Shown: positions 25,433 through 58,714, counted from the stretch's first letter. The stretch: 64,000 bases of DNA from Dehalococcoidia bacterium (GCA_963662615.2 CAXXSR010000001.1:704001-768000); one strand, 5' to 3'. The notes: generated by a model not told the origin, from the sequence alone. A program made the numbers and translations.

Positions 25433-25473
25433 ATGGGTCACTCGTCCCATCGCGAATGGGGCGGGTGCACCTG
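25433..25473 (+). promoter_or_regulatory. Tandem NarL/DevR-type operator
   Basis: ATGGGTC-ACTC-GTCCCAT-N5-ATGGGGC-GGGT-GCACCTG, followed about 20 bp later by TAGTTT. Same architecture as 56722-56762. Confidence 0.7.
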
Positions 25474-25622
25474 TGGCGCTGATGGCGCGCTCGGTAGTTT
25501 CGTATCAGTCGCGAAGGTGCCCGGTGCGGCCGAGCACCCTCGCGGCTCGGCAAGTTCGCGAGCATCGCGGCGCCGACGCCTGGAAACGACGCCTGGAAGC
25601 AATGCCTGGAAGGAGTGAATCG

Positions 25623-26228
25623 ATGTTTCGTAACGGAGTCCCACGGGTGGAGTCGGACGATGACCTGGCCCATGGCCAGAGTGTGATCATCGCCGCGCGC
25701 TGGATTTTGGTCGTCGCCGGCCTCGTGCTGGCGATCTGGAATCCCGGCGGTCTCGTCGAGCTGCAGGTCGCGATCGTCGTGATCCTCGGCCTGGCGCTCG
25801 GCAACTTCGCCCTGCACACGCAAGTCCTCGGGAAGGGGCCGTCAATGGCCCGGGTGGTCTACGCGGCCAGCGTGGCCGACTTGGCGGCAATCTCTCTGCT
25901 GATCATCTCCGGAGGCGGTTTTCCGGCCGCGCCCTACGTGTTCTACCTGCCCGCGCTCCTGGCGATCTCGGTGACGTTCCGCACGGAGGTCATGGCGCTC
26001 TATACGGCGGCGGCGCTGGGCGCGTACGGACTGATCGCCGTCGTCACGGCGAGCGGGGGCGATCTGCTGACGGTGCTGATCGAACTCCTCGTGCTCGCCG
26101 CCGTGCCGGTCTGCGGCAACGTCTACTGGCGCTTGGAGCGCGACCGACGGAGCCGCGCCGGGCAACAGACAGAGGTCGACCCCCTGACGTCGCAGGCCGC
26201 AGAGGGAAGCTGGCCCCGGCCTGCCTGA
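25623..26228 (+). CDS. Membrane protein, stand-alone paralog of the sensor domain of the kinase at 56872
   Basis: AGGAG RBS; about 5-6 TM; ARWILV...GNFALH...ASVADLAAI...FYLPALLAISVTF...LERDRR. Confidence 0.8.
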   Translation: MFRNGVPRVESDDDLAHGQSVIIAARWILVVAGLVLAIWNPGGLVELQVAIVVILGLALGNFALHTQVLGKGPSMARVVYAASVADLAAISLLIISGGGFPAAPYVFYLPALLAISVTFRTEVMALYTAAALGAYGLIAVVTASGGDLLTVLIELLVLAAVPVCGNVYWRLERDRRSRAGQQTEVDPLTSQAAEGSWPRPA

Positions 26229-26258
26229 TCCACTGAGTCATACCACGAGAGGTGAGTC

Positions 26259-26876
26259 ATGCTACGCAACAGGACTACTGCCCAAGAAGCGGCCGAGGAC
26301 ATCTTCTTCGGCCAGCTCGTGATGAACTGGGCCCGATGGTTCGTCATCGGCGCCGCGGCCATCCTGATTCTCGGCACCGCAGAGCGGACCACGGACTTGG
26401 TCTTCGGCATCTGGCCCGTCGTTGGGCTGATGGCGGTCAACTTCTACCTGCATGGGCGCCGCATCGGGGAACGCCCCGCCAATCCGCGCCTGATCATGCT
26501 GGCCAGCGTGCTGGACGTGGCGGTCATCACGGTCGTCATTCTCACCGGGCTGGGCGCCGGCCTGGGCGACGGTATTCACAGCCCCTTCTTCGTCGCCTAC
26601 TACCCCGTTGTCTTGGCCTTCGCCTTCGTCATGCAGCCCCGGACGACCGTCGTCTACACCGTGGCGGTGCTGGCCGCCTACGCGGGTGCATGCGTCCTCG
26701 CCGACGGCACAACGGTGCTCAGCTCCTCGGCCGAACTTGAGAAGCTGGCGGCGCGCCTGATCACGCTCGCGGCCGTGGGCGGCCTCGGGACCTACTTCTG
26801 GCGCATCCAGCGGCGTCGACGCCACGCGCTCTTGGCTGAGGAGCCTGGCGTCGCCAACCACCCGGCGGGTTCGTAG
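26259..26876 (+). CDS. Membrane protein, second stand-alone sensor-domain paralog
   Basis: GAGG RBS; ARWFVI...VNFYLH...LASVLDVAVIT...SPFFVAYYPVVLAFAFV...RLITL...IQRRRR. Confidence 0.8.
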   Translation: MLRNRTTAQEAAEDIFFGQLVMNWARWFVIGAAAILILGTAERTTDLVFGIWPVVGLMAVNFYLHGRRIGERPANPRLIMLASVLDVAVITVVILTGLGAGLGDGIHSPFFVAYYPVVLAFAFVMQPRTTVVYTVAVLAAYAGACVLADGTTVLSSSAELEKLAARLITLAAVGGLGTYFWRIQRRRRHALLAEEPGVANHPAGS

Positions 26877-26910
26877 AGCGAGGAACGGTTGCGAGCGGGA
26901 CGACGTCGCT

Positions 26911-28140
26911 ATGAAAATCCTGCGCCATCTCACCCCTAAGTCCCGCGGCTGGCTGGACTCCCTGCTGGCGCCGGCCGCGGATCCGCGCCAGACCTTCGCC
27001 GACGTGGTCCAACGCCAGCAGGATCTCCTGGCCCGACTGCGCCAGGCGCGAACGAGCATCGCGGTGTCGCGAGAGCGACTGGAGGCCAAGATCGCGGAAG
27101 GACGGAGCAAACTCGCGCTCCTGGAGGAGCAGGCGCGCGAGCCGGGGCGCGATGACCTGACCCCCTTCGTCCTCCAGCTCCGCCGTCGCGCCGCCGAGGA
27201 GATCCACGCGCTGGAAGCGGAGCTGCGCACGCTGCGGCAGGAGGAGGAAGTCCTGCCGCTGGTGGAGCAGCGCCTCGTGGCCGAGATCGATGCCCTGCAT
27301 GCTCGCCGAGAGGTCCAGGCAGCGCGTCACAGCAGCACTGAGGCGCAGGTGCGCGTGCAGGAAGCGCTGGGCGGCATCGCCGAGGAAGTGGCCGGCCTCA
27401 GCCTGGCCCTGGAGCAGGCCGAGCAGCGAACCGAGCAACTCCAGTCCCGGGCGTCGGCGATCGACCAACTCGTCGAACTCGGGCTTCCGCAGGCGCCGGG
27501 CCGCTCCACCGGCGACCCCGCTGCACGGCGGCTGGCGCTTCGCTTCTCGTTCGAAGCCGGCAACGAGGAGATGGGGCAGTTCCAAGAGCAACTCCAGGCC
27601 GGGCTGCAGGTGGTGCAACAGCTCATCTACGAGTACGAGCAGCTCAAGCCGGTGCTGGTGCGTCGCCGCGCCACCGATTCTCTCTCCGTCGCCTACGTCC
27701 CCGCCCTCGCCGAGGAAACATACCGCCAGGGCATGAGCGTGCTCGAGCACGCGCTGGAACTTGCGCGCGCGCTGCGCTCACCCGGGACGACGGATCTCGA
27801 CGCCGACATCGCCGCGCTGGAGCGCGAAGGCGAAACGGCCCAGCGCGAAACGGCACAGCGCCAGGCGGCGCCGTCCGAACCCGCGCCAACCCTGCCCAAC
27901 ACGCTGGCGACCCTGACGGAGCGGCGGGATGCCCTGCGACGCCACCGCGCGCGCGTCGATGAGCTCATCCGCCATGCCGGCCGCTGTCAAGCGTCGCTGC
28001 AGCAAGCGCGGATCGAATTGGCGAGCCTCAACGCCAGCAATTCCGCGGCCGGCGTCAACGCCGTCACCGCGACGTTAATGAACACCCTCCAACAGGCCCG
28101 CGAGGTCCAGGAGGAACTGACCAAGGACGGCGCTGGCTAG
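26911..28140 (+). CDS. PspA/IM30-like coiled-coil protein with an extra C-terminal helical domain
   Basis: AADPRQTF...LARLRQARTSIAVSRERLE...GRDDL...AQVRVQEALGGI...AEQRTEQLQSRASAIDQLVELG follows the PspA pattern; about 200 extra helical residues follow. Confidence 0.7.
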   Translation: MKILRHLTPKSRGWLDSLLAPAADPRQTFADVVQRQQDLLARLRQARTSIAVSRERLEAKIAEGRSKLALLEEQAREPGRDDLTPFVLQLRRRAAEEIHALEAELRTLRQEEEVLPLVEQRLVAEIDALHARREVQAARHSSTEAQVRVQEALGGIAEEVAGLSLALEQAEQRTEQLQSRASAIDQLVELGLPQAPGRSTGDPAARRLALRFSFEAGNEEMGQFQEQLQAGLQVVQQLIYEYEQLKPVLVRRRATDSLSVAYVPALAEETYRQGMSVLEHALELARALRSPGTTDLDADIAALEREGETAQRETAQRQAAPSEPAPTLPNTLATLTERRDALRRHRARVDELIRHAGRCQASLQQARIELASLNASNSAAGVNAVTATLMNTLQQAREVQEELTKDGAG

Positions 28141-28204
28141 GCCCTGCGCCGTGGCGCATCACGGATCAGCGAGTGGATCTGCACTCGCAATGGAGGAATA
28201 TCCC

Positions 28205-29419
28205 ATGACGATCACAGAGCACCCCAATCAGTCGGAGACAGACACGGCCGTCATTCCCGTCTCGCCTGACGAGATTGTCCCGGCGGAGGGGACCGAGCCC
28301 ACCGCGCCCGAGGCGCCCGAGGCGCTCTCGCCGGAGGAGGTCCGGGACTTCCAGGCCCGAGCCGGCGCCTTGGTCGCCGATCTGGGCAACGCCAGCGGCA
28401 GCAAGGAGTTGCAACAGATCGACGGCATCTCCGGCCTTGGCGTTCAGGCGCAGCGCCGCGCCGGGTCGGAACTCGACCTGCTCAGGGGGCGCATGAAAGA
28501 CATCTTTACCCGCGATGGACCCAACGCCGAGCTCTGGGCCGATCTCCTGGAGATGCGCAAGGCCCTTGAGCGCATCGACCCGCAGCAGTTGAGCCGCCCC
28601 AGCCTCAACCGGCGGCTATCCGGCGTCCTCTCGTTCGTGCGCCGCTCGGCCCCCGGTTTGAAGGCGCTTGAGCGAATCGCCCTCCGCCATGAATCGGTCT
28701 CCAAAGAAGTCGAGGTGATTGAGGCGAGGCTCCGCGAGGGCCGCATGATGCTGTCGCGGGACAACGTCGAATTGCGCAAGCTCTACGAGCAGGTCGAGGC
28801 GCAGCAAGTCACGATTCAGAAGAACGCCTACCTGGGCGAGCTCATCATCCGCGAGCTGGCCGCCCTCATCGACCGGACCGACGACCCGCTCAAGGCCGAG
28901 CGGCTGCGCAGCCCCCTCCACGACGTCGCCACGCGCGTGCAGGACCTTCGCATGATGGAGGAGGTCGGGCATCAGTTTTTCGTGAGCATCGAGATGACCC
29001 GCGAGAACAATTCCCGCTTGGGGCAGTCGGTGGAGCGCACCCTCGCGCTGGGCACGAACGTCGTGACCATCGGTCTGGCTATCCAGGTAGCGCTCGTGCG
29101 CCAGAAGCGCGTCCTCGACGCGACCCGTCGGACGCGGGAGTTCCTGCGCGGCATGATCGCCGCCAACGCTGCCGCCATCAAACGCCATACGGCGGAGATC
29201 GGCGATGTCTACAACAGTCCCGTGATCGCCATCGAGAAAGTCACGCAGGCCCACCAGGACTTTGTCGACGCCATCGACATGGCCAACCGCATCAAGCAGG
29301 AGGGCATCGAGGCCGCGCGGGAAAACATCGCCCGCCTCGGCCAGATGTCCGCCGATCTGCAGCGTCGCTCTGGCGCGCTGGGGGACCCCGGACGCGAATC
29401 CACGTCCGTGGAGGTGTGA
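28205..29419 (+). CDS. telA: Toxic anion resistance protein (TelA/KlaB/YaaN family)
   Basis: GGAGG RBS; LGVQAQ...L..IDP...ESVSKEVEVI...L..G...LSRDNVEL...RVQDL...ENNSRL...QKRVLDA. Confidence 0.8.
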   Translation: MTITEHPNQSETDTAVIPVSPDEIVPAEGTEPTAPEAPEALSPEEVRDFQARAGALVADLGNASGSKELQQIDGISGLGVQAQRRAGSELDLLRGRMKDIFTRDGPNAELWADLLEMRKALERIDPQQLSRPSLNRRLSGVLSFVRRSAPGLKALERIALRHESVSKEVEVIEARLREGRMMLSRDNVELRKLYEQVEAQQVTIQKNAYLGELIIRELAALIDRTDDPLKAERLRSPLHDVATRVQDLRMMEEVGHQFFVSIEMTRENNSRLGQSVERTLALGTNVVTIGLAIQVALVRQKRVLDATRRTREFLRGMIAANAAAIKRHTAEIGDVYNSPVIAIEKVTQAHQDFVDAIDMANRIKQEGIEAARENIARLGQMSADLQRRSGALGDPGRESTSVEV

Positions 29420-29477
29420 TTGACCTGCTCGCAATCCTGGCTGGCCGCCGCTGGGGCGCGCATGGAGCGGGACACGC

Positions 29478-30221
29478 TTACCCCGCCTGCACCGCCAGGA
29501 GCCCTCCGGCGAGAAGGGGAACCGCGACCGCTAGGAGTTGCAGGGCGGAATCCGGCGCACTGTGCAGCCACCGCAGATCCACTGGCAGCGTTCGTCCATC
29601 GTCGAGGGTGACCTGTCCTTCCAACTGCACGACCCGGCGGCGCAGCAGGCGGGCACGAGCGGACAGTCGGCGCTGCGTCAGGGAAAGGGCGAACGCTGCT
29701 GCGCCGACGAGGAGTGCCGGCCAGGGGACCGTTCCGCCCTGCGCGAACGCGGCGGTGATTACCGGGTAGGCGCCCCAGGCCAACGCGAAGCCGACGTCCG
29801 TGTGGAAGCGCCCTCCGAACCATTCCAGGTTGTAGGCAAGGAGCATCGCCACTCCGGCCAGCATGAACAATCCCAGCAGCGGAGACCCTTGCACAATCCC
29901 CAGCGCGCCCAGGGCCAGCGCGCCAGCAAGGCCCAGTACGGTCAGAGCCAGCAAGTGTCCGGACGGAATCGCTGTGCGCAGCGGCCGATCCTGCCACTCA
30001 TCCATTGCATGCGCGGCGATTCCCACCGCCAGGAAGAAAGCCAGCAGCGTCGCAGCCAATCGGAGCATGTCGACCTGGGTCACTGTCACTGCCCCCAGCA
30101 CCACGTACGCCAGGTGCCAGGTGGTGTAGGGCGGATGCAGGAGCGTCCAATAGTCGCGCCAGCCGCCCCCCGGCAGCGCATAGAAGGCCACTCGCCGAGC
30201 CGCTCGAGCTTCAGCCCTCAT
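29478..30221 (-). CDS. UbiA/MenA-like membrane protein
   Basis: Multi-TM; LLHPPYT, AHAMDEWQDRPLRT, LAYNLE; overlaps the methyltransferase stop. Confidence 0.65.
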   Translation of the reverse strand: MRAEARAARRVAFYALPGGGWRDYWTLLHPPYTTWHLAYVVLGAVTVTQVDMLRLAATLLAFFLAVGIAAHAMDEWQDRPLRTAIPSGHLLALTVLGLAGALALGALGIVQGSPLLGLFMLAGVAMLLAYNLEWFGGRFHTDVGFALAWGAYPVITAAFAQGGTVPWPALLVGAAAFALSLTQRRLSARARLLRRRVVQLEGQVTLDDGRTLPVDLRWLHSAPDSALQLLAVAVPLLAGGLLAVQAG

Positions 30222-30963
30222 CGCTCCCACCCCCTTCGGATTTCCGTCCCCACATGACGACGCCTCCTCCCCAGCTCATCACACGGACGTGAACGTCCTC
30301 GATCCCGGCGGCGCTCCACCATCCGCGTTGGCTCTCCAGCGGAAAGCGCTGGTAGAACCTGTCGATGCTCGGTCCCAGAAACCGACCGACCTCGTACCAG
30401 CTTCGCGAGACGAGAGCCCCGGCCAGGGGCAGTCCTACCCGCGTATGCAGCCACCAGGCCGCCTGCAGGGGCAGAGAATCTGGACGGGAGAACTCCAGCC
30501 CGGCCAGGGTGCCGCCGGGTCGCAATGTCCGCGCTAATTCCGCCAGGGTGGCCGGCGGATCCGCGACGTACCGCAGCAGGTAGGTAAAGGTAACGGCATC
30601 AAACGTTCGGTCCGGGAACGGCAGGCAGCGGGCGTCGCCGCGCACCAGTCCAATCCGCGCTGTCAGGCCGGCGTCGTCCAGCGCGCGCGCGCCCGCAGCC
30701 AGCATCGCGGGCGATTGGTCCAGCCCCACAATCGCTGCGGGCGTCCGCTGCGCCACCGCACGAGCCACCCTGGCCGTGCCCGTCGCAACATCGAGAACGC
30801 GTCCATCCGCCGGCACCGCCACGCGGGAGAGCAAGAAGCGGCGCCAGCGCGCGTTCTGCCCGAACGAGAGCAGCTCGGCCAGCAGGTCGTACTCGTCGGC
30901 GATGCCGGCAAAGAGACGGCGCGCGACCGCCGCCGGGTCCGCAGCGACTTCTGGCGAACGCAT
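30211..30963 (-). CDS. UbiE/MenG-family methyltransferase
   Basis: F.GIA.EYD...LSFGQNARWR, VLDVATGTA, LPFPDRTFDAVT, LRPGG...LEFSRP. Confidence 0.85.
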   Translation of the reverse strand: MRSPEVAADPAAVARRLFAGIADEYDLLAELLSFGQNARWRRFLLSRVAVPADGRVLDVATGTARVARAVAQRTPAAIVGLDQSPAMLAAGARALDDAGLTARIGLVRGDARCLPFPDRTFDAVTFTYLLRYVADPPATLAELARTLRPGGTLAGLEFSRPDSLPLQAAWWLHTRVGLPLAGALVSRSWYEVGRFLGPSIDRFYQRFPLESQRGWWSAAGIEDVHVRVMSWGGGVVMWGRKSEGGGSDEG

Positions 30964-31232
30964 GGAGCGATCCTAATCTCCTTTCGGTGCGTAGCCACCG
31001 CCCCGCCTCCTGGGAGGGGCGACACGTTCGGATTCTGGGGCCACTGTCACGGCGCCACGGTCACGACGCCACTGTCACGGCGCCGCTGCACGGCTCCTAC
31101 GCAGCACCCCCCTGTTGCCGCGCTGCACGGAGCGCCCACGACATGGCGCTTATCCAGTGAGCCCGCAATGTATGGTGATCCGAGCGCTCGCCAAGGAGCG
31201 CCCCTTGCCGGCAACGTCTTGAGGAGGCCCTC

Positions 31233-32402
31233 ATGATCACGCGGTTCTCATCGCTGTACGCCGGACACGTGGATCTCGACGACATGGGCCAAGACGCCAC
31301 GCCGGTCAACGAGCGGCGGCTGTCCAACGAGCAGCTTGCCACGGTGTTCTCCAAGACCGAGGCGATGGCCCGCTGCATGGACGACAACGGGTACGACACG
31401 CTCTGGCTGGCGGAGCACCATTTCCAGCACGAGGGCTACGAGTGCATCCCCAACCTGCTGATGCTGGGCGTGCATCTCTCGCACCTGACCGAACGGCTGA
31501 AGATTGGCTGCGGCTTCAACATCGCACCGATGTGGCACCCGCTGCGCCTCGCCGAGGACTTCGCCACCGCCGACATCCTAACCGACGGGCGCATCGTCTT
31601 CGGCCTCGGCCGCGGCTATCACACCCGCGAGGTCGAGAGCCTCGGCGGACCCATGCTCGACCAGGAGGCGAACCGCGACTACTTCGAAGAGCAGACCGAG
31701 ATCATCTTCAAGGCCTTCCACGACGAGTCGTTCTCGCACCATGGCAAGCACTACGACCTGCCCCCGCGCGTGCCCTACCGCGGCTATGAGCTTGAGGAGT
31801 TGACGCTCGTCCCGCGGCCGACGCATCCGGTCGAGTGCTGGCAGCCCATCGTCAGCGCATCGGCACGCGGCCTCGACTTCATGGTCAAGCATGGGATCAA
31901 GGGAGTGGTCGGCGGCGGATCGGCGCTGATGTCGGAGGGCCCCATGGCCGCCTACCGCGACGCGCTCGGCCGCGCTGGCATCGAGGCCAAGCTCGGCGAA
32001 GGGCTCGCCGTTGGGGTCAACTTCCACCTCGCCGACACCAAGGCACAGGCCATCAAGGAAGCGACCCCGTTCTACGAGGAACACATCAAGATGTTCGCCC
32101 CGCTCGGCTTTTTTCGCGGCCTCAGCGACGAGCAACTCGACGTGGTCGCACAGCGCGGCGGCTGGGCCGCGGCGGGCATCCCGACCCTCCACGAGGCCTG
32201 TGAGAACCGCAGTTGGTATTGCGGTCCGCCCCAGGGATTCATCGACTACCTGCATGCGCTGGGTGACGCCGCGCCGGGCCTCGAGATGGTCAACGTCCAG
32301 GCGAGCATGGCCACGCCGCAGCAGGTGATCATCGAGCAGCTGCAGTGGTTCGCGAGCGCGGTGATGCCGGAGTTTCAGCCCGCCGGCGCGGCCATCCGCT
32401 GA
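31233..32402 (+). CDS. Luciferase-like (LLM) flavin-dependent oxidoreductase
   Basis: WLAEHHFQHEGYE, WHPLRLAEDFATADILTDGR...GLGRGY. Confidence 0.9.
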   Translation: MITRFSSLYAGHVDLDDMGQDATPVNERRLSNEQLATVFSKTEAMARCMDDNGYDTLWLAEHHFQHEGYECIPNLLMLGVHLSHLTERLKIGCGFNIAPMWHPLRLAEDFATADILTDGRIVFGLGRGYHTREVESLGGPMLDQEANRDYFEEQTEIIFKAFHDESFSHHGKHYDLPPRVPYRGYELEELTLVPRPTHPVECWQPIVSASARGLDFMVKHGIKGVVGGGSALMSEGPMAAYRDALGRAGIEAKLGEGLAVGVNFHLADTKAQAIKEATPFYEEHIKMFAPLGFFRGLSDEQLDVVAQRGGWAAAGIPTLHEACENRSWYCGPPQGFIDYLHALGDAAPGLEMVNVQASMATPQQVIIEQLQWFASAVMPEFQPAGAAIR

Positions 32403-32458
32403 CCGCCGGATTCGGGAACCACCTGCGATGCGCGCATGGGCGACGGGCGGCAGCGTGC

Positions 32459-32474
32459 AATGGCTCCCCGGGCA
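32459..32474 (-). mobile_element. att-like duplicate of the tRNA-Asn 3' end
   Basis: AATGGCTCCCCGGGCA is identical to 34505-34520. Confidence 0.7.
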
Positions 32475-32558
32475 CGACGCCGCGCGCCTCTAGCACACCT
32501 ACGCCGTGCCGGCCCTGGTCGCCTGATGGTGATCTGTCAGGATGGCAGCCGAGGAGAA

Positions 32559-32945
32559 TCAGCCGTCCAGCAGTGTCTCAACGCGGCTGAACAGCCACTT
32601 GCCGTCGTGTCTGCGCAGGGCGCAGCGGTAGGTGCCTTTGCCCTCAACCTTCAGTTCGCGGCCGCGCAGGAGGACCATGAAATAGCAGCTGAGCTGGGCG
32701 GAATCGCCGTCGCCCTCAAGCACGTGATTGCTGGTCCAGATGCGCATCCCGCGCATATGGTCGGGCAGACTCTCTGGCTGCTGCGTCAACGCATCACGGC
32801 CGCGGCGGTGCCCGCGCCGCCCTTCGAACACACCGTCGTCTGTAAAGGTGTCCGCAAAGGCCGGCCCGTCGCGGGCGTCGTAGGTCTGGCAGAAGCGCGC
32901 CATCAACTCTACGATTTCGACCTTGTCGGCTGCCGTCAGCGGCAT
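32559..32945 (-). CDS. SnoaL/NTF2-like protein
   Basis: DKVEIVELMARF...D..D...F..DGVF...G.Y...L.R.DG.W.F..; GGAGAGG RBS. Confidence 0.8.
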   Translation of the reverse strand: MPLTAADKVEIVELMARFCQTYDARDGPAFADTFTDDGVFEGRRGHRRGRDALTQQPESLPDHMRGMRIWTSNHVLEGDGDSAQLSCYFMVLLRGRELKVEGKGTYRCALRRHDGKWLFSRVETLLDG

Positions 32946-33134
32946 CGCATCCTCTCCGCTTCTGGTCCCGGTCGTCCCAGTAGGAGAGGATAGGCGATTG
33001 GCCTGCCCCAGGCATCCACAGGGGGTGGTCGAAAAGTTGCCCGCACGATGACCGGCGCCCCGCCGGCGACTGCTGTTGTAGACTCCCACCTGACACGCCG
33101 GCCCAGCAACTGCTCGCCTAACAGGGGGACCGTC

Positions 33135-34506: not shown

Positions 34507-34582
34507 TGGCTCCCCGGGCAGGACTCGAACCTGCGACCTAGCGGTTAACAGCCGCCCGCTCTACCAATTGAGCTACCGGGGA
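34507..34582 (-). tRNA. tRNA-Asn(GTT)
   Basis: TCCCCGGTAGCTCAATTGGTAGAGC...CT-GTT-AA...GGTTCGAGTCC...GGGGAGCCA. Confidence 0.97.
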
Positions 34583-34610
34583 TCGCCGCAATGCCATGGC
34601 CGCAACGCCG

Positions 34611-34684
34611 TGGCTGCCGAGCCAGGACTCGAACCTGAACTGAGGGATCCAAAGTCCCCCGTGCTACCATTACACCACTCGGCA
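34611..34684 (-). tRNA. tRNA-Gln(TTG)
   Basis: TGCCGAGTGGTGTAATGGTAGCAC-GGGGA-CTTTGGA-TCCCT...GGTTCGAGTCC...CCA. Confidence 0.97.
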
Positions 34685-34718
34685 CCGCGCGCCTCAATCG
34701 GGCCTTCACTGATCCCAC

Positions 34719-34807
34719 TGGTGCCGAAGGCCGGACTCGAACCGGCACGGGAGTTGCCCCCCAACAGTGTTTGAGACTGTCGCGTCTACCAATTCCGCCA
34801 CTTCGGC
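34719..34807 (-). tRNA. tRNA-Leu(CAA)
   Basis: GCCGAAGTGGCGGAATTGGTAGACGC, ACAGT-CTCAAAC-ACTGT, long variable arm, GGTTCGAGTCC, CCA. Confidence 0.97.
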
Positions 34808-50635: not shown

Positions 50636-50966
50636 CGCTTCACGGCCTGCATCGGTGGCCCCGCGGCCGGCGCTCCTCCGCGGCATCGCTCGACCAGAGA
50701 GATGTGGCCAAGGAAACGGGACGCCGCGCGAGTCGGCGCCGACCAGGCGCTAGCCTACTCCATCCTTGCCCTGACGGAGGTGTGCTGAGGGCTGGTTGGC
50801 AGTGCCCAAGCGCCGCGAGACTCGGCCCCCCTGCGGGACGGGAGCGCTCGACATGGCCTCGACCGCCTGCGGCGCCGCGACTGGCCGGGCGCGGTAGAGC
50901 CGGCGAGACCCGCGAGACCTACACCGCTATCTTGACCCGGCTGATGAAATTTTCGAGAGGATCGCG

Positions 50967-51668
50967 ATGACCTCCCTCGGCTCACGCACCGCCCTCGTGA
51001 CTGGCGGCAATCGCGGGATCGGCCTCGCGGCATGCCGCCAACTTGCTCGCGCCGGCCTCCGTGTCATTCTCACGGCGCGGGATTCGCATCGGGGCCGCGA
51101 GGCCACGGCGCTGCTCAAAGGCGAGGGGCTGGACGTCGCCTTCGAGCCGATGGACGTTGGCGACCGCGAGAGCGTCGCCTCCTGCCTGAGGCGCCTCAGT
51201 CAACAGGACATCATCGTCGATGTGCTGGTCAACAATGCCGGCATTTTCCCCTCGCAGGACATCCTGCGCGTCGATGTGGACATGCTCGACGAAGTGCTGG
51301 CCGTGCACGTGGTGGGACCATTCCGGCTCTGCCGGGCGCTCCTGCCCACGATGATCGAGCGCGGCTACGGCCGGATCGTCAACGTCTCTTCGGGCCTTGG
51401 CGCGGTCTGCGATCAGCCGCCGGCCGCCGGCGTCTACGGCGTGTCCAAGGCTTCGCTCAACGCCCTGACCCGCAGCCTGGCCGCATCCGTCCGCGGCGAT
51501 GTGAAGGTGAACGCCTTGCACCCGGGCTGGGTGCGTACCGAGATGGGCGGCGCGGGTGCGCCGGTCAGTCCTGAGGAGGCCGCAGCCTCGCTGGTGTGGC
51601 TGGCCACGCTGCCGGCGGACGGTCCCAACGGCGGCTTCTTCTTCAACCGCCGCTCAGTCGCTTGGTAG
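50967..51668 (+). CDS. Short-chain dehydrogenase/reductase (carbonyl reductase-like)
   Basis: TGGNRGIG, NNAGI, VSS, YGVSK, HPGWVRTEMGG. Confidence 0.92.
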   Translation: MTSLGSRTALVTGGNRGIGLAACRQLARAGLRVILTARDSHRGREATALLKGEGLDVAFEPMDVGDRESVASCLRRLSQQDIIVDVLVNNAGIFPSQDILRVDVDMLDEVLAVHVVGPFRLCRALLPTMIERGYGRIVNVSSGLGAVCDQPPAAGVYGVSKASLNALTRSLAASVRGDVKVNALHPGWVRTEMGGAGAPVSPEEAAASLVWLATLPADGPNGGFFFNRRSVAW

Positions 51669-52170
51669 GTCGAAGCCCAAGCGTTCCCGGCGCTCCTGTC
51701 CCGACACACGCGAAACGATGCCCTGAGCCGGCCGCGGCCGGCTTCCACACTCACTGTGCCGTCCCACCAGCGCGGCGGTCGTTCCAGCAGCGCCACGCGC
51801 TCGCGGTCCCGCCGTCACCATCCACGCATAGTGTCGGCCTTGCCTGACGTGCGAACGACGGGGCCGAGCCAGCCTCACGCGCTGCGCCGGGAACCACTGC
51901 GCCCGGAACCACCTCGCCGGATGTATCCATGGAGCTTGGTCCAACTCCTGCGATAACCTAATCTCGCAGGCGCACGGATCTCCCTCACACCCCCGTGACG
52001 CCGCAGCACGCTTGGCCTCTCAGCATCGATGCGGATCTCTGTACCGCTGCGAACAGAGTCGCGAGCGCGGGCCCTGACCGCCCGCGAAGAGTCTGCAGCG
52101 AGCATCTGCCGGTCCCGGGAAGGACACCACGCCATGGTCCGCCCTGGCCGCTGGAAGGAACGTCAGTTTC

Positions 52171-53439
52171 ATGCCGACGAGCTGGCGCTCGATCTCCTAC
52201 GGCTGGTGGCTGCTCGCGGCCGCCGTACTGGCACAGGCCGTGTTGACCGGGGTCTCCTTCTGGTCTTTTGGCCTCTACATCCAGCCGCTGGAAGGCGAGT
52301 TCGGTTGGTCGCGCGCGCAGGTGTCGCTGGGCTTCTCCATCGCGCTGTTGATCAGCGGGCTGATTGCACCGTTCGTCGGCAAGGCGGTCGACGTCTATGG
52401 CCCGCGTCGGGTGATCATCATCGGTGCGGCCTCGTCGGCCGCCAGCTACCTCCTGCTGACCACGACCAGCGCGTTGTGGGAGTGGTACGTCTTCCAGTCG
52501 ATCAATGCTGTGTTCCGGCAGATGATCTTCTTCATTCCGTTCACGGCCCTGATCGCGATCTGGTTCGACCGGCGGCGCGGTGCCGCCATCGGGATCTTGA
52601 CAACGGGCTTTGCGCTCGGCGGCGCGGTTCTCGTGCCCATCATGCGGGTAATCATCGACGCCGTCGATTGGGACGGCTCGTTCCTCGTATCCGCCGCCTT
52701 GGTGGGCGCGATCTTCCTGCCCTTAGGGCTGCTGATCCGCAACCGCCCCGCCGACACGCGCTCAGCCGTGGATGGAGGGCCGCGGTCCGCCGCCGCGTCC
52801 ACGGCGTCGTCCCCTCCAGCCAGCTTGACGCTCGGTCAGGCGCTGCGGACGCCGATCTTCTGGTTGATCGCCTTCGCCATCGCTATGCTCTTCTACGGTC
52901 TCTTCGGCTGGACCGTGCACGCCATCCTCTACTACGAATCCGTCGGGATTTCGCCTGGCTGGGCGGCGGCGCTCTTCTCCATCGCGTCCGGCGGCTCCAT
53001 GCTCACCCGCCTGGCGTTCGGGTTCCTCGCGGACCGTCTTGGCAACATCGAGGCGGCCGGCGCCGGGCTCACCGCTTGCCTGGTCCTCGCCATGCTGGTC
53101 CTGTTCGCGACCGGCGGCTCCACGCTCGGCGTGGCACTGTTCCTGCCGCTGTTCATGATCGGCGCCGGCGGTGGACCCTTGCTCGAGTTGCTCTTGCTCA
53201 CGCGCGCCTTCGGCGTTGCGAACTTCGGCACGATCCTCGGCGCCGTGGCCGTGGTGGAGACGATCGGGCTCGTGATGAGCCCCACGGCGGCTGGCGCCAT
53301 CTTCGACGCCACCGGCGAGTACGACTGGGCGCTCATGATGCTCGCCGGCGCCTTTGGCGCCTCGTCGGTGCTGTTCTGGGTCGCCGGCAGACGGCGACGG
53401 CCTATCCTCGCGGAGCCGCCGCTCGCCCCAGACGGATGA
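52171..53439 (+). CDS. MFS transporter (oxalate/formate antiporter- or monocarboxylate-like)
   Basis: About 12 TM; GKAVDVYGPRRV, WFDRRRGAAIG, GFLADRLG. Confidence 0.9.
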   Translation: MPTSWRSISYGWWLLAAAVLAQAVLTGVSFWSFGLYIQPLEGEFGWSRAQVSLGFSIALLISGLIAPFVGKAVDVYGPRRVIIIGAASSAASYLLLTTTSALWEWYVFQSINAVFRQMIFFIPFTALIAIWFDRRRGAAIGILTTGFALGGAVLVPIMRVIIDAVDWDGSFLVSAALVGAIFLPLGLLIRNRPADTRSAVDGGPRSAAASTASSPPASLTLGQALRTPIFWLIAFAIAMLFYGLFGWTVHAILYYESVGISPGWAAALFSIASGGSMLTRLAFGFLADRLGNIEAAGAGLTACLVLAMLVLFATGGSTLGVALFLPLFMIGAGGGPLLELLLLTRAFGVANFGTILGAVAVVETIGLVMSPTAAGAIFDATGEYDWALMMLAGAFGASSVLFWVAGRRRRPILAEPPLAPDG

Positions 53440-53911
53440 GGCCGCCGTCCCTCCAGCGCTCCGGTCCCGATCGGGCCGCCTGTGCGGAGGCAAGGCGACC
53501 GAATTCGTTGTGGGAGGAGAGTACGTCCGTCCCCAGCCCAGCAATACAAGTTGAGGAGGTCCGCCGCGATCTCGCCGTCACCATCTCGCGATAGTGACGT
53601 GTGCCGACCGCGCGACGAACGCGTCGGCGGCGATCTACCATGTGGACCGACGCCCGGCGACGCCGGGTGGCTCACGCCCGAAGTCCGAGTGCCGCGAGGA
53701 CGACACGGATGATGAGATCGGGTTTGCGGGCAGGGGCGGCTAGGTGACCGCGACGCTGCGCGCTCGCGATGCGGGCACGACGGTCGAGCTGCTGACCGTC
53801 GAATGGGACGGACAGGTCCGCCGATTCGCGCGGGAGGGACTCTAGTTGGATCGCCTTCGGGAGTCCACGGCAGGACGGCGCAAGGCGGCTCCGACGCCGC
53901 GGGCTGTTTGT

Positions 53912-54277
53912 ATGGGCGCCTACCTTCAGCACCTCTTCATCCGGACGCCGCTGACCATCGCGCTTGTCCTGGCGGCCCTAGGCCTGGGAGCTGCGGCCGC
54001 GACCTTGCACGCATCCGCTGACGTCCAAGAGCCCGACAGGGTCACCCTGTGTCACAACGGGCGCAGCCTGACCCTGTCCCTGAACGCCGAAGCTGACCAT
54101 CTTGCGCACGGAGATACGCCGGGGCCATGCTCACCTGGGGGGCTCGCGGCGACCGGATTCGGCGGTCTGGCCGACAGCGACGGGAGCGACGTGCCGGCGT
54201 GGGCCTGGGCCGCGCTTGCGGCCGGGGTGACGTCGGCGGCGCTCGTGGCTGGGCGCGGGGCGCTGCGCCGACGCTGA
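53912..54277 (+). CDS. Small secreted protein with a Cys/His mini-domain and an LPxTG-like C-terminal anchor
   Basis: Signal peptide; VTLCHNGRSL...HLAHGDTPGPC; LAATGFGGLA + TM + RRR. Confidence 0.7.
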   Translation: MGAYLQHLFIRTPLTIALVLAALGLGAAAATLHASADVQEPDRVTLCHNGRSLTLSLNAEADHLAHGDTPGPCSPGGLAATGFGGLADSDGSDVPAWAWAALAAGVTSAALVAGRGALRRR

Positions 54278-54380
54278 GGCCGTCCTTCAGGAGGCGGCGC
54301 TCAGGGCCGTCGCGATCCGCTCAGAGTGTGCACGGTCATCAGTCGCTCTTGGCCGCGCACAGTCTGACAGCGCCCGCGAA

Positions 54381-55064
54381 TCAGCCAGCGTTGTCGCCGT
54401 CGTCGGGCGCCACAGGATCGGGCGCCACAGAGTCGGGCCCGGGCTGATTGACGAAGTGCCGCGCCAGTGGGCGCAGCGCCTCCATGATCTCGCCCGCCAC
54501 CTCTTCTGCCACTTCACACTCGTGCATTGCCGCGCTCATGTGACTGAGCCACCGCTCGGCGAGGCGAAGACTGATCGGGAAGGGCAAGTGTCGCTGTCGC
54601 AAGCGGGGCGAGCCATAGCGCTGGGTGTAGCGCGGTTCGCCTCCCAGCCACTGCTCGAAAAACAGCTTCTGCTTCGCGCGTCCGGCATCCAGGTCCGCCG
54701 GGAACAGCGAACGGATCTCGGGATCCGCCTCAATGCGGTCGTAGAGGGAATCGATCACTCGCTCAACGGCGTCGCGCCCGCCGATGCGCGCGATGAGCGT
54801 TTCCGGCTCGAGGGCTCCGACGTCGTGGACGAGGGAATTCACGCGGGCGAGAGGCGGTGCGCCGAGGTGATCCGCCACCGGCTTCGAGCCCGCCAACTCG
54901 GCTGCCCGCTCAAAGCCAGCGCAATGAACCACGGGCAGTGTCGGATAGCGCGGGTACTGGGAATCAGTCTCGGACCGCCCGCAGCGAACAAAGCGTGAAC
55001 CACGAGCCGTCGTGACCCCCCGTGCCCAGGTGCACCCAGTGCAGAGGCCGAGATCTTGCGCCAC
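54381..55064 (-). CDS. Group II truncated hemoglobin fused to an N-terminal 4-Cys domain
   Basis: IGG...YDRI..DP....FP.DL...KQKLFFEQWLGGEPRY...G.PRLRQRHLPFPI...RWL; N-terminus CTGC...C...YPRYP.LPV..C.GFE. Confidence 0.8.
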   Translation of the reverse strand: MAQDLGLCTGCTWARGVTTARGSRFVRCGRSETDSQYPRYPTLPVVHCAGFERAAELAGSKPVADHLGAPPLARVNSLVHDVGALEPETLIARIGGRDAVERVIDSLYDRIEADPEIRSLFPADLDAGRAKQKLFFEQWLGGEPRYTQRYGSPRLRQRHLPFPISLRLAERWLSHMSAAMHECEVAEEVAGEIMEALRPLARHFVNQPGPDSVAPDPVAPDDGDNAG

Positions 55065-55257
55065 TCCCCGTTGACCTCCAGTCGTCCCGCTAGACCGTAC
55101 GATACAGCGGGGGTCTGACGTGAACGAAAGCTCGATTGTCGGGCGGGCGGATTGGCGGGCGGGCGGATTGGTGGCCTGGCGAATTAACTCGCTGATGGGG
55201 ACGCGTCTTGGATCGCTCAAGCACGCAGGATTCATCGTCTGCGTCTGAAGGGCTCCG

Positions 55258-55625
55258 ATGACATACAACGACCTGCTCAAACTCTATCTCCCGGATACGT
55301 CCCCCGCAGACGACTACGCACCGTTCATGGCTGCTGCGCGGGCTGTCTTGTTGCCCGGAAAAGGGCCACCGTGGCAAGAGTTCGACGGCGCCTCGAACCT
55401 CATTGGTTGGCGGTTCAGATCTACGCGTGAGTAGCTGGACGACTACATCAAGACTGATGATGAGCCGTTTGAGGCGATTTACACGCGAGAGCGCGTGCTC
55501 TTCGGGATGTTCACGAGCGGGGTTTCCTGCATCGAGAGCACCTGCTACGCCCTATACGCACTAGCGAGTCAGCCATCGGTCCTTGGCGTCACATTCGACG
55601 AGAATGAGCGGCGACTGACGCTGGC
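55258..55625 (+). pseudogene. Interrupted gene fragment (possibly HEPN-like) with in-frame TAG at 55432-55434
   Basis: ATG 55258 ...WQEFDGASNLIGWRFRSTRE*LDDY...ERVLFGMFTSGVSCIESTCYALYAL; truncated by the convergent SGNH gene. Confidence 0.5.
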
Positions 55626-55642
55626 CGCTTCGTGGCGGTGCC

Positions 55643-56641
55643 TTAGCCGCGTCGCCTCCCGGAGACAAAGAGGTGGCACACGCCCATAACGATCCCCACG
55701 ACGGCGCCGGCTGCCGCCAGCAGCGCCAGCGGAAGCGCCCAGATCCAGCTGTCCGATGACGGCGCCTGCGCCAGGCCGCCGCTTCCCGTGTTGGGCAGGC
55801 CGCCGGGAGCGCTGGGGCCGGCTGTGCCGGACGCCGCAATGAACTCCTGAGCGATGATCGTGTAGCCGGCGTCATTGGCGTGGCAGCAGTCCGACTGCAT
55901 CTGCTGAGGTCCCAGTGAGCCGGCCACGTCCGCCACCTCCGCGGAGTGCCGCGCCGCGGCGGCTCGGATCAGGTCATTCAGCCCCGCCGGCAGCCCCAGT
56001 GCTGGCGCACCCTCCAAGATGCTCTCTGCCACCGGAGCCAGCGAATGCAGTTCGCAATCGGGGTGGATCAGCATGTTGCTGTACGTCATGGCGATGATCG
56101 GCGTGCTCGCGCCCGCCGCGCCGCGCAGCTCGCCGAGTATGACCTCGAAGTTTCCGGCGAAGCTCGTCAGCGTCGCTTCCACCGCCCCCACGCACTCCGC
56201 CGACGGGCCGCCGCTGCAGACCGGAACCAGCGCCATCATGTCGTTCCCGCCGATGTTCAGCGTGATCATGCGCACGTCGTCCTCCGCGCTGGCGTTGCCG
56301 TTCCGCTCGCGCAACTGGGCCACCGCTGCTTCCAGCTGTCCCTCGGCGATCATCGAATCGCTGGTCTCGCCGCTCACGGCCACATTCTGTAGTTGGAGGG
56401 AAGGGCCGCCGGCGTCGGCGGGCGTCAGGGCGTCCGTCAGGTGGCGGTGGACCTGGGGCACGTATCCGCTCGTCGCCGCGTCCGACGCGCCCACGCCCGC
56501 CGCCAGCGAGTCACCGAGCGCCAGGTACACTGGCGCTTCGCCCCCGCTCGACTCGTCCGCCAACGCCGCGCCCGTCCCCGCTCCCACCGCAAGCAGGACG
56601 CCCAATATCAAGACCGAGAACCGTCGCAACTGCTTTTTCAT
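55643..56641 (-). CDS. Secreted SGNH/GDSL hydrolase with LPNTG C-terminal anchor
   Basis: Signal peptide MKKQLRRFSVL...; YLALGDSL, IGGND, DCCHANDAGY; LPNTGSGGLA + TM + RRR. Confidence 0.9.
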   Translation of the reverse strand: MKKQLRRFSVLILGVLLAVGAGTGAALADESSGGEAPVYLALGDSLAAGVGASDAATSGYVPQVHRHLTDALTPADAGGPSLQLQNVAVSGETSDSMIAEGQLEAAVAQLRERNGNASAEDDVRMITLNIGGNDMMALVPVCSGGPSAECVGAVEATLTSFAGNFEVILGELRGAAGASTPIIAMTYSNMLIHPDCELHSLAPVAESILEGAPALGLPAGLNDLIRAAAARHSAEVADVAGSLGPQQMQSDCCHANDAGYTIIAQEFIAASGTAGPSAPGGLPNTGSGGLAQAPSSDSWIWALPLALLAAAGAVVGIVMGVCHLFVSGRRRG

Positions 56642-56721
56642 GATTGAACCTTCGTTCCCGCGCGGCCGGCTTCCTGCTGTGCCGCTGCACACGCAGTCTC
56701 GCCGCGGCGCCCCGCCCGTCG

Positions 56722-56762
56722 AAGGTACGGATGTCCCATTGCCCATGGGACGCCTGACCCAT
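56722..56762 (-). promoter_or_regulatory. Tandem NarL/DevR-type operator between the divergent SGNH and kinase genes
   Basis: Minus strand reads ATGGGTC-AGGC-GTCCCAT-N5-ATGGGAC-ATCC-GTACCTT. Confidence 0.7.
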
Positions 56763-56871
56763 TTGCGCGCCGCCCGGCGCTCTCGGCAGGCCCCCGGCGA
56801 CGGCGCGATTCCCCCCGGCGTCGCCTGCGACGGGAGAAACGCGCCACCGCGTCCGCTACGATTCCCCCACC

Positions 56872-58044
56872 ATGGACTGGCTGCGCCGCCCCCTATCGGA
56901 GCAACAGCGCGCCAGCCTGCCCATCCTGGTGGTGGTCCGCTGGCTGATCCTCGGCGTGGTGCTCTTCTTTCTCAACTTCCACGCGGGCGCGGAGACCGGC
57001 GAGCGGATCGGCCTCAATCTCGTCCTCGTGGGCGCCGCCCTGCTCAACGCCCGCCTCCATTGGCTGATGTGGAACGGCCGGCGGATCCCCGTGGCCCTCC
57101 CGTTGCTCGCCAGCCTCTACGACATCACCGGGATCACGGCGGGCGTCGCTCTCATCGACGGCTTTGACAACCCCAACTTCCTCGTCTACTTCCCGGCCCT
57201 GCTCGCCTTCACCCTCGTCTTCCCCGGCTGGTGGAGCGTCCTCTACACGGCCGGCGCTCTGGCCGCCTACACGCCCATCAGCATCCTCACCCACTCCGCC
57301 TTCGACGGCGGTGACACGGCCGACGTCAAGGCCATGGTCCTCCGCCTTACCACCCTGGTGGCGACGCTCCTCATCGCCAACATGATCGTTCGCATCGAAC
57401 GGCGCCGCCGCGAACGCGCCGTGGCGGCCGAGCACGCCAGCGGCCTGGAACGCGAGCGTGTCTCCGAGGAGATCCATGACGGCGTCGCCCAGAACGTGTA
57501 CCTCTTGGCCATGAACCTGGAGATGCTCGCCGAGGTCGAGCGCGACCCCGACCGCGCCGAGCGCGTCAGCTCCATGGTCCGGCTCGCCAAGGAGACGCTG
57601 ATCGAGACGCGCGGCCTCCTCACGAACCTCCAGCCGGTGATGGCGGGCACGAAGGGCTTGCCGGACCTGGTCCGCACGCAGGCCGAGGAGTTCGCCGCCG
57701 TCACCCGCATCCCCGTCCACGTCAACATCGACGGCCCCCCCCGCGACCTCCCGCCCGAGTCCATCGGTGACATCTATCGCGTGGTCCAGGAGGGGCTGGC
57801 CAACGTCTACAAGCACGCCCGCGCCACGGAGGCCACGATCGCGCTCAACTACCGCCCCCACGACCTCCTCATCGAGGTGCGGGATAATGGCCGCGGCCTG
57901 GATCTCGTGGACGACGGCCACCGCGGCCACGGCATCCACAACATGCGCCAGCGCGCCGCTCGACTGGGTGGCGGTATCGTCTTCGAGGCGCTGGACGGGG
58001 GCGGCACCCGCCTCGCTATGACCGTGCCGCTGGGGAAGAGCTGA
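56872..58044 (+). CDS. Membrane sensor histidine kinase (HisKA_3)
   Basis: About 5-6 TM with no large extracellular loop; ERERVSEEIHDGVAQ, QEGLANVYKHA, DNGRG, GHGIHNMRQRA. Confidence 0.93.
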   Translation: MDWLRRPLSEQQRASLPILVVVRWLILGVVLFFLNFHAGAETGERIGLNLVLVGAALLNARLHWLMWNGRRIPVALPLLASLYDITGITAGVALIDGFDNPNFLVYFPALLAFTLVFPGWWSVLYTAGALAAYTPISILTHSAFDGGDTADVKAMVLRLTTLVATLLIANMIVRIERRRRERAVAAEHASGLERERVSEEIHDGVAQNVYLLAMNLEMLAEVERDPDRAERVSSMVRLAKETLIETRGLLTNLQPVMAGTKGLPDLVRTQAEEFAAVTRIPVHVNIDGPPRDLPPESIGDIYRVVQEGLANVYKHARATEATIALNYRPHDLLIEVRDNGRGLDLVDDGHRGHGIHNMRQRAARLGGGIVFEALDGGGTRLAMTVPLGKS

Positions 58045-58045
58045 G

Positions 58046-58714
58046 ATGAAGCAGATCCGCGTCTTGCTCGTCGACGATCACGCCGTCGTCCGCGCCGGCC
58101 TTCGCGCCATCCTCGAGGTTGAAGATGACATCGCCGTCGTCGCCGAAGCCGCCGACGGCGACGCCGCCGTCCGTGAGGCCCTCGCCGCCAACCCCGCCGT
58201 CGTGATCATGGACGTGCGCATGGGCCCCACCGACGGCATCCAGGCTTGCCGCGAGATCAAGAGTGAGCGCGACGGCATCGGCGTCCTCATGCTGACGTCG
58301 TTCGGCGGTGCCGAGGCGGTCGTGGCGGCCTTGGCGGCCTTGATGGCCGGCGCCTCCGGCTTCCTCCTCAAGAACACTGGCCGTGACGAACTCCTCCGCG
58401 CCATCCGCGCCGTCGCTCGCGGCGAGTCGTTGCTGGACGCCGCCGCCACCCGCCAGATCACCAACAAGATCGTGGACCTCGCCGCCGGCGGCGGCGCCCC
58501 GCTCGTCTCACGCCTCTCCGATCGAGAGCGGGAGGTCCTGACCTTGGTCGCGCAAGGTCACACGAACAAAGAGATCGCCGGAGAGCTGGTGATCTCCAAG
58601 GTCACGGCCCGCAACCACGTCAGCCACATCCTGGAGAAGTTGGGGATGAGCCGCCGCAGCGAGGCGGCCGCCTTCGCCGCCCAGATGGGTCTGCTGGACC
58701 AACCCTCCACCTAG
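58046..58714 (+). CDS. NarL/LuxR-family response regulator (DevR-like)
   Basis: VDDHAVVR, MDVRM, LMLTSF, LSDREREVL..VAQG.TNKEIA..L.IS..T..NHVS.IL.KL. Confidence 0.95.
   Translation: MKQIRVLLVDDHAVVRAGLRAILEVEDDIAVVAEAADGDAAVREALAANPAVVIMDVRMGPTDGIQACREIKSERDGIGVLMLTSFGGAEAVVAALAALMAGASGFLLKNTGRDELLRAIRAVARGESLLDAAATRQITNKIVDLAAGGGAPLVSRLSDREREVLTLVAQGHTNKEIAGELVISKVTARNHVSHILEKLGMSRRSEAAAFAAQMGLLDQPST

Follow-up and report, generated by a model that had tools for sequence, protein, structure and literature searches.

This 64,000-nucleotide stretch of a Dehalococcoidia genome (hereafter the window; the genome, G000, has 2.66 Mb and a G+C content of 68%) raises the question of why the membrane sensor domain of a histidine kinase should be present there in two further copies that carry no kinase. 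The kinase, a HisKA_3-type protein of 390 amino acids (aa) (56872-58044, + strand) whose residues 1-180 form a six-helix sensor domain (56872-57411, +), is followed by the gene of a NarL/LuxR-type response regulator of 222 aa (58046-58714, +; recognition helix ISKVTARNHVSHILEKLG). Some 31 kb away, two six-helix membrane proteins, both kinase-less paralogs of this domain and here called memA (25623-26228, +; 201 aa) and memB (26259-26876, +; 205 aa), are encoded at the head of four + strand genes with intergenic gaps of 10-34 bp. The other two are a PspA/IM30-family gene (26911-28140, +; 409 aa) and a TelA-family gene (28151-29419, +), the open reading frame (ORF) of the latter being listed with 422 aa although its real start is perhaps slightly downstream. 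The reading that we favor, to which we give an even chance, is that the window holds one copy of a conserved Chloroflexota membrane-stress module with a two-arm response, the memA-memB pair with PspA/TelA being one arm and the kinase the transcriptional one.

An earlier note on this DNA had aligned the membrane domain of the kinase with memA and memB by eye, and BLASTP bore this homology out: memA and memB share 31% identity over 189 aa (E 5e-25), and they match kinase residues 18-171 (memA; 28% identity, E 7e-10) and 23-164 (memB; 33% identity, E 6e-13). A 31-row alignment of 13 kinase N-termini, 8 memA and 10 memB proteins revealed that the three kinds can be aligned over the entire domain and share six invariant columns (R23, W24, N59, D84, Y106 and P108 in kinase numbering) that place Arg-Trp in helix 1, Asn in helix 2, Asp in helix 3 and Tyr-x-Pro in helix 4, polar residues of helices 1-4 being common to kinase, memA and memB. 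Judged by sequence, the three domains are truly homologous. In a maximum likelihood tree each kind forms one side of a well-supported branch (100/97 for the kinase, 99/97 for memA and 98/98 for memB), and therefore they are old paralog lineages and not recent copies of the kinase sensor. The best conserved of the three is memB. No family of Pfam or NCBIfam was matched by memA or memB, and the 598 memB relatives detected at E <=1e-3 within 112-359 aa are all unnamed or "hypothetical", with a Pfam domain in none of them. A Pfam match to Phage_holin_2 in 7 of 21 family members (best E 7.5e-5) was judged to be membrane-helix noise. According to tblastn, G000 contains three copies of the six-helix domain, one of PspA, one of TelA and six HisKA_3 kinase cores.

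The grouping of the two membrane genes with PspA-like and TelA genes in one operon, which had also been proposed, was supported both by the packing of the four genes and by profile matches. The PspA-like protein matched PF04012 (PspA_IM30) with an E of 6.5e-7 and 29.6 bits, which for this single sequence is under the Pfam cut-off of 33.9, and the profile of its family matched solved Vipp1/PspA chains (E 1e-17 to 3e-10; the best, 9.8e-18, over positions 3-218). Its PspA domain comprises residues 13-187, the C-terminal half being uncharacterised. The TelA protein matched PF05816 over positions 7-328 of 332 (E 3.6e-41; 141.8 bits, cut-off 30), and no solved relative of it was found by sequence. 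In the kinase and the regulator Pfam identified HisKA_3 (E 6.6e-12), HATPase_c, Response_reg and GerE domains.

A co-occurrence analysis showed that this association is widespread in Chloroflexota. Genes were counted by tblastn in 64 loci, taken from one-genome-per-species contigs of Dehalococcoidia, Anaerolineae, Chloroflexia and Thermomicrobiales. The memA gene lies directly before memB in 63 of them, the exception being a truncated match, and a PspA gene follows memB in 58; a second PspA gene precedes memA in 25 loci, and TelA is present in eight. In 18 loci a kinase with the homologous N-terminal domain is found with its regulator within 10 kb, to which L006, whose kinase is cut by the contig end, can be added. 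As the module is often contiguous, the 31-kb separation in the window is a split form; the split regulon that had been claimed is thus real, but it is one arrangement of the module. In the genome of locus L021 (G435 C1:1979885-1981188), memA is in two pieces with a TAG and memB has a TGA inside the match, these stops reflecting gene decay or else errors in the assembly.

An even sample of the phylum was also searched, with 401 genomes including G000 and the unpublished G195 and G065; since eight candidates were scored per genome, its counts are lower bounds. The six-helix domain was present in at least 67 of these genomes (G000 included), most matches lying in ORFs of 400-500 aa, and at this depth of scoring stand-alone pairs were seen in G000, G052 and G266 only. 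Five genomes that have the cluster and no adjacent kinase were inspected. A kinase-length ORF bearing the domain was located 300-520 kb away in two of them, and the remaining three, with all candidates scored, contained memA and memB only and no kinase with the domain.

How the two kinase-less copies may be assembled is indicated by fusion proteins. The profile of the 31-row alignment retrieved 1107 representative clusters at E <=1e-3, 229 of them at E <=1e-30, and the 18 best representatives hold two six-helix copies in one protein of 288-435 aa. In four two-copy proteins examined by sequence the N-terminal half is memA-like and the C-terminal half memB-like, one of them also having an N-terminal zinc ribbon. 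Fusion of memA or memB to the kinase was not found among the 150 matches listed. Scanning of 24 longer matches identified HisKA_3 in 17, HisKA in one and a PD40 propeller before the domain in one. A protein of 684 aa, P0179, consists of a PD40 beta-propeller region and a C-terminal memA-like six-helix domain.

An AlphaFold2 model of the fusion P0121, obtained from 22 sequences, has 12 helices, with a predicted local distance difference test (pLDDT) score of 87.9 and a predicted template modeling (pTM) score of 0.86. VIA-align matched it to the adenylyl cyclases AC9 (6r3q; Z 26.1, root-mean-square deviation (rmsd) 4.6, 350 aligned) and AC5 (8sl3; Z 24.0, rmsd 4.0, 365 aligned), the next match having a Z of 11.0, and one half of the model matched the Mycobacterium tuberculosis Cya anchor (7yzi) with a Z of 10.2. 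A Foldseek search of the same model against the PDB gave no match at E <=0.001, adenylyl-cyclase membrane domains being the best at 8e-3, and the six-helix profile gave 0 matches at E <=10 among solved-structure sequences. The memA-memB fusion is therefore predicted to pack as a pseudo-dimer of two six-helix units like the adenylyl-cyclase anchors. The receptor module of the kinase could also exist as a free memA-memB heterodimer, acting either as a PspA/TelA-coupled damage receptor or as an induced decoy for the kinase ligand, a proposal that we regard as possible although doubtful. If it were true, one sensing fold would serve two arms of one stress response, the transcriptional one and another that recruits proteins directly, and bacteria would offer a counterpart to the transition from homodimer to pseudo-heterodimer in the adenylyl-cyclase anchors.

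A different role had been assigned to memA and memB in the earlier note, namely that of free kinase modulators induced as feedback. They would bind the six-helix domain of the kinase in mixed dimers or assemblies and take the place that LiaF has in LiaFSR. Hetero-association of paralogs is known among histidine kinases of other systems, and the homology from end to end with its shared polar helix residues, the co-regulation implied by a shared box (see below) and the adjacency of kinase and regulator in 18 of the 64 loci all agree with this proposal. However, it is weakened by the three cluster genomes of five that lack a kinase with the domain, the other two having it only at 300-520 kb, and by the fusions, which join memA to memB in the 18 top representatives and never to a kinase among the 150 matches listed. 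In addition, a related genome, G009, possesses the kinase and the box regulon, and stand-alone memA or memB was not found in it with this query (completeness 91%). The three kinds being old, separate lineages also argues against this role. Since the pair is also present in genomes that have no such kinase, and since its two members associate with each other, modulation cannot be its general role, and at most it would be a facultative function; overall we consider that this proposal is unlikely to be correct.

The memA operon and the surroundings of the kinase share a 41-bp double inverted repeat. Double box A (25433-25473, +; ATGGGTC-ACTC-GTCCCAT, 5 bp, ATGGGGC-GGGT-GCACCTG; 61.9 bits) is the predicted operator of the memA operon, and a predicted -10 hexamer, TAGTTT (25495-25500, +), is located 21 bp past its box 2. 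Double box B (56722-56762, -; ATGGGTC-AGGC-GTCCCAT, 5 bp, ATGGGAC-ATCC-GTACCTT; 54.3 bits) faces the gene of a GDSL/SGNH hydrolase (55643-56641, -), which is divergent from the kinase, and the predicted -10 hexamer of this promoter, GAGACT (56695-56700, -), is likewise 21 bp past box 2. Box 1 of double box B is 110 bp upstream of the kinase start. However, no hexamer of the form N-A-N-N-N-T could be read at the equivalent distance on the kinase side, and therefore autoregulation of the kinase is unsupported. Double box B thus appears from its sequence to be a promoter element of the divergent GDSL gene and not of the kinase, the minus-strand reading pointing to the GDSL gene, which corrects its assignment in the earlier note.

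The exact 18-nt palindrome of box 1 (ATGGGTC-N4-GTCCCAT) occurs in the window at 25433-25450 (+) and 56745-56762 (-). When up to two mismatches were allowed, five matches were obtained in the window, corresponding to these two sites on both strands and one at 14114, against a mean of 0.28 in shuffled sequences, none of 100 shuffles reaching five. The two-mismatch match at 14114-14131 (ATGGGGCCCCGGTCCCAG) is outside the ten sites described next. In G000 the exact box 1 is present at five places, against 0 for the reversed-pattern control, and a second box follows 5 bp on at all five. A weight matrix built from these five exact sites identified ten sites in G000 with 22.8-65.6 bits, the maximum of the null (reversed or complemented sequence) being 10.2. 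This genome-wide scan indicates that the box is a real, non-random predicted operator tied to the PspA operon. It also modified the claim that the box is shared by two sites, since the exact box and its second box are found at both but about ten promoters carry the element.

The hexamer at +63..+68 from the box start reads N-A-N-N-N-T in 10 of the 10 sites, with A64 and T68 invariant, and at any other offset from 58 to 72 this pattern was found in 0 or 1 site; in addition, G occupies +61 in 8 of 10. As the region +58..+72 is outside the matrix, this stretch is an independent check of the sites. Start codons lie at +88 to +190 from the box start. With the -10 at 21 bp, the right half of box 2 would be at the -35 position, which suggests the geometry of a class-II activator for the predicted operator. 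Simple promoter and terminator scans gave no signal above shuffles.

Downstream of the ten boxes lie the memA operon, the genes of the GDSL hydrolase and of a secreted FG-GAP protein, a 62-aa ORF, and a gene for a protein with a helix and a YHS-like part, behind which a double-zinc-ribbon membrane protein is encoded. Four small Cys-rich or single-helix proteins, three of them paralogous zinc ribbons, are also preceded by the box, and one site has no clear ORF. The GDSL hydrolase belongs to this regulon and is a secreted protein, having both a signal peptide and, at the C-terminus, an LPNTG-type sorting signal. Two secreted proteins of the window (55643-55800 and 60109-60885) end with LPNTG or LPATG, a hydrophobic stretch and basic residues, that is, with sortase-type sorting signals in a Chloroflexota genome. 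The three box-controlled Cys-rich zinc ribbons (C1:516387-516611, 597199-597411 and 518632-519165; loci L001, L002 and L146) have the pattern CxxCG...W.(F/L)...CxxC...YCxxC. Elsewhere, a zinc-ribbon ORF lies directly before memA in L026 (9144-9400), and P0123 is a zinc ribbon fused to a memA-memB fusion. A functional tie between zinc ribbons and the six-helix pair is suggested.

Membership of the box in a mobile repeat was considered and rejected, as the sites share the box only, except for two that share about 180 bp. These are 25250-25432 and G000 C1:1795703-1795838 (locus L005), 82% identical and located upstream of the boxes at 25433 and C1:1795685. This shared sequence suggests a promoter module that has been duplicated, or else an element, on either strand, that is not recognised as such, and a short divergent ORF start in it is not conserved as coding.

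The next question is whether the regulator encoded beside the kinase is the one that binds these boxes. The comparison set comprised 41 genomes, G000 and 40 relatives. Of these, G000 and G009 alone yielded the double box, and G009 is also the only relative with a close homolog of the kinase (58% identity; regulator 72% identical). A looser search of G009 gave four matches, two of them new, for a total of five distinct sites, and the hexamer is present at four of the five. TARNHVS is the helix signature not only of the G000, G009 and L134 regulators but also of seven regulators beside memA-memB clusters, three more having the variant TVRNHVS; none of the 12 remaining GerE-type helices in G000 shows TARNHVS.

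A double inverted repeat in the same 41-nt frame lies before the first cluster gene in L006, L007, L008, L012, L064, L048 and L066, and another in the kinase/memA divergent region of L026. The core of these foreign repeats is xGGTx-N4-xACCx, box 2 often ending in GCACCT, and N-A-N-N-N-T is located 21 nt past them (+63) at 8 of the 8 sites examined, five of which score highest with the matrix in their entire locus (6-20 kb) and lie 99-169 bp ahead of the gene. When metagenome contigs were scanned for the exact box, 31 stretches were obtained, most of which differ in base composition, lack the second box and are mostly due to chance. Three near-identical contigs from one organism (L111, L126 and L134) carry the perfect palindrome ATGGGTC-ATCT-GACCCAT 57 bp before a kinase-regulator operon; it encodes a HisKA_3 kinase of 676 aa and a regulator that is 54% identical to that of the window and has the same helix. 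The six-helix domain of the window was not detected in the long N-terminus of this kinase by tblastn at E <=1e-5.

The DNA-binding domain of the regulator has DosR and the enterococcal LiaR-type domain 4wt0 as its best solved matches (both E 1.6e-13), and the regulator matches the solved VraR/LiaR-type protein 5hev with an E of 8.6e-39. According to PMC4082495, DosR contacts bases through K179, K182 and N183. The residues at these positions in the window regulator are V, R and N, that is, one identical and one conservatively replaced. Altogether, the window regulator is probably the protein that binds the double box.

Alternatively, the box could belong to another regulator, the kinase being beside one of its sites by coincidence. 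The box next to the kinase belongs to the promoter of the divergent gene, no box was found within 1.5 kb of the G009 kinase, and the regulator query gave 18 tblastn matches in G000, a genome with about nine complete NarL-type regulators as well as other LuxR-type helices, all of which would fit with such a coincidence. Nevertheless, TARNHVS is unique to this regulator in G000 and recurs beside box-preceded clusters of other classes, the box and a close kinase-regulator homolog co-occur in two of the 41 genomes and in no other, and in the metagenome organism the box stands directly before an operon that encodes a kinase and a regulator 54% identical to that of the window. We consider this coincidence quite improbable.

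The sequence relatives of the six-helix domain bear on what it may sense. The PilS-like six-helix family PF25323 was matched by two of the 24 longer matches scanned, the kinases P0266 (25.5 bits) and P0253 (21.8 bits), both just under the cut-off of 27, and not by the window proteins, none of the three matching at E <=0.01 and neither memA nor memB at E <=10. In a language-model atlas, the clusters nearest to memB (scores 0.96) carry PF25323 in 17% and 48% of their members and include stand-alone proteins of about 200 aa. The N-terminus of the kinase is collinear with NF033792 (RegB/PrrB/ActS) over positions 4-175, weakly (E 8e-5; 21.6 bits, cut-off 350), and the kinase is the only ORF of G000 that matches the N-terminal part of the RegB family. 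Loops between helices 3 and 4 read DGFDNPNF in the kinase, GGGFPAAPY in memA and GDGIHSPFF in memB, and GGFxNxF in many relatives, so that the motif is partly kept. In RegB, ubiquinone is bound by the helix-1 Arg and by a GGXXNPF loop that joins helices 3 and 4, conserved Arg and Gln being present in helix 1 (PMC3000548), and PilS senses the membrane protein PilA through its six helices (PMC6058289).

A UbiA-like prenyltransferase gene (weak, E 0.0019) and a UbiE/MenG-type methyltransferase gene (E 9.7e-36) at 29478-30963 (-) converge on the end of the TelA gene; these neighbors would be relevant only to a six-helix domain that, like RegB, senses quinones. A memA-memB pair that binds the membrane ligand of the kinase, such as a quinone or a lipid, and is an induced sink resetting the signal without touching the kinase, would agree with these neighbors, with the RegB-like match and with the retention in the kinase-less copies of the helix-1 R-W, helix-2 N, helix-3 D, helix-4 Y-x-P and a loop of the G-G-F-x-N/S-x-F type, but we hold it to be very improbable, as the RegB match is far under its cut-off in a setting where membrane-helix composition inflates scores, the loop motif is kept only in part and the flanking PspA genes are left unexplained.

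The favored reading, a conserved membrane-stress module with two arms, would work in the following way. The kinase would sense through a dimer of its six-helix membrane domains, which by sequence may be distant relatives of the PilS/RegB type and by predicted fold resemble the hexahelical adenylyl-cyclase anchors, and it would phosphorylate the adjacent NarL-type regulator. This regulator most likely binds the 41-bp double inverted repeat as two dimers, and, with the promoter-proximal half-site abutting the -35 of about ten promoters, it would be a class-II-type activator. The targets would be memA-memB-pspA-telA, the wall-anchored GDSL hydrolase, the secreted FG-GAP protein and the small zinc-ribbon or single-helix membrane proteins. 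The memA and memB proteins would pair as a 12-helix pseudo-dimer, the counterpart of the homodimeric sensor of the kinase, and most likely serve as the membrane arm, as sensor or anchor, together with the flanking PspA and here also with TelA. By analogy with the PspA partners of other phyla, and considering the gene order (PspA behind the pair in 58 of the 64 loci and a second copy in 25), the memA-memB pair is a candidate PspA partner. We infer activation rather than repression, the contact of memA with memB when they are unfused, the contact with PspA and the signal sensed.

Several observations weigh against this reading. As double box B serves the gene opposite the kinase, the link between regulator and box is made by co-occurrence and the shared helix, and no box was found within 1.5 kb of the G009 kinase; moreover, G000 and G009 are kin and their agreement is close to one observation. 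The eight foreign box sites were partly found by eye. Over the 64 distant loci the G000 matrix was no better than the null (median top score 7.3 against 8.4), the strict G000 box search gave matches that were not at promoter positions, a search for 7-4-7 inverted repeats gave no common palindrome, and GCACCT had a box-like context in only 4 of 62 upstream regions. The kinases of G000 and G009 are set apart from the cluster-adjacent ones on a long branch of their own, and the window operon may have been recruited into the regulon of a different kinase. The predicted match to the cyclase-anchor fold is that of a metagenomic fusion protein and not of the window's own proteins, and the evidence for the role as PspA partner is gene order.

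The remaining features of the region are three tRNA genes in a row (34510-34807, -), which were all that Rfam detected over 24500-59500. Sequencing runs that contain the stretch or a part of it number 20, from nine studies, with no RNA run among those listed.

Regarding known systems, this is a variant of the Lia/Psp-type envelope-stress systems, whose circuit logic (two-component system, NarL-type regulator and PspA operon) is already known. As in LiaFSR-LiaIH of Bacillus subtilis and VraTSR of staphylococci, a HisKA_3 kinase is combined with a NarL-type regulator, the closest solved relatives of which include VraR/LiaR-type proteins, and the putative target operon, regulator-driven control being likely here, contains a PspA homolog and small membrane proteins. 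The LiaFSR kinase is an intramembrane-sensing one with two helices and a HAMP linker. In contrast, the sensor of the window kinase has about 180 residues and six helices, with no HAMP domain detected by Pfam, the membrane partners are paralogs of the sensor itself, and TelA is in the operon. No LiaF, Toastrack or LiaI-type Pfam domain was found in memA, memB or the scanned neighbors, LiaF-TM being matched in one of 21 family members with an E of 0.2. With a HisKA_3 kinase and a NarL regulator near VraR/LiaR and DevR, the Lia-analogous circuit that the earlier note had claimed is a fair description as to the kinase and regulator types and the PspA operon with its box, but not as to a LiaF-type inhibitor, which was not detected among these proteins, or to the sensor.

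The DevR/DosR box is of the GGGAC-N4-GTCCC type. DosR is the best solved match of the DNA-binding domain together with 4wt0, and the box core here, GGG(T/A)C-N4-G(T/A)CCC, is alike; however, neither the sensor nor the regulon is related to the hypoxia system. The double box followed by 21 bp and a -10 hexamer would be a sharp promoter code, which predicts small zinc-ribbon proteins and secreted envelope proteins as co-regulated effectors.

PspA/IM30 systems have been studied in few phyla, and their membrane partners differ (PspBC, LiaI/LiaF and PspM). In PspA-PspB-PspC and the other partner sets surveyed (available text of PMC11237479 and PMC9239133), PspA is also beside membrane proteins and a dedicated regulator, and zinc-ribbon partners recur. 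The same available text of both surveys does not mention TelA or a kinase-sensor paralog beside pspA, although their supplements or web tables may list such neighborhoods, and the word "Chloroflexi" is used there a single time, by one of the two and in another context. A description of the kinase-less sensor-paralog design was not found in the literature search, supplements aside. If memA-memB is indeed a PspA partner, the 1107 representative clusters, matching no Pfam family, would constitute a new phylum-wide family of such partners.

With RegB/PrrB/ActS the sensor domain shares six helices, the helix-1 Arg, invariant here, and a Gly-rich loop with N, P and F between helices 3 and 4 on the outer face, but the core is HisKA in that family and HisKA_3 here, the score is far under the cut-off and the loop motif is partly kept. 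The PilS-like proteins of PF25323 differ from the window system in output domain and regulon.

Finally, the function of adenylyl-cyclase membrane anchors is an open question. The class III adenylyl-cyclase anchors and the present domains would both include homodimeric and pseudo-heterodimeric versions of one module, whereas the sequence identity is 7-12% and no cyclase domain is present here, the likeness being one of fold in a predicted model. Such anchors have been proposed as receptors (PMC4821796 and PMC9552081). A PspA partner that is a paralog of a kinase sensor and has a predicted adenylyl-cyclase-anchor fold would be of unusual origin.

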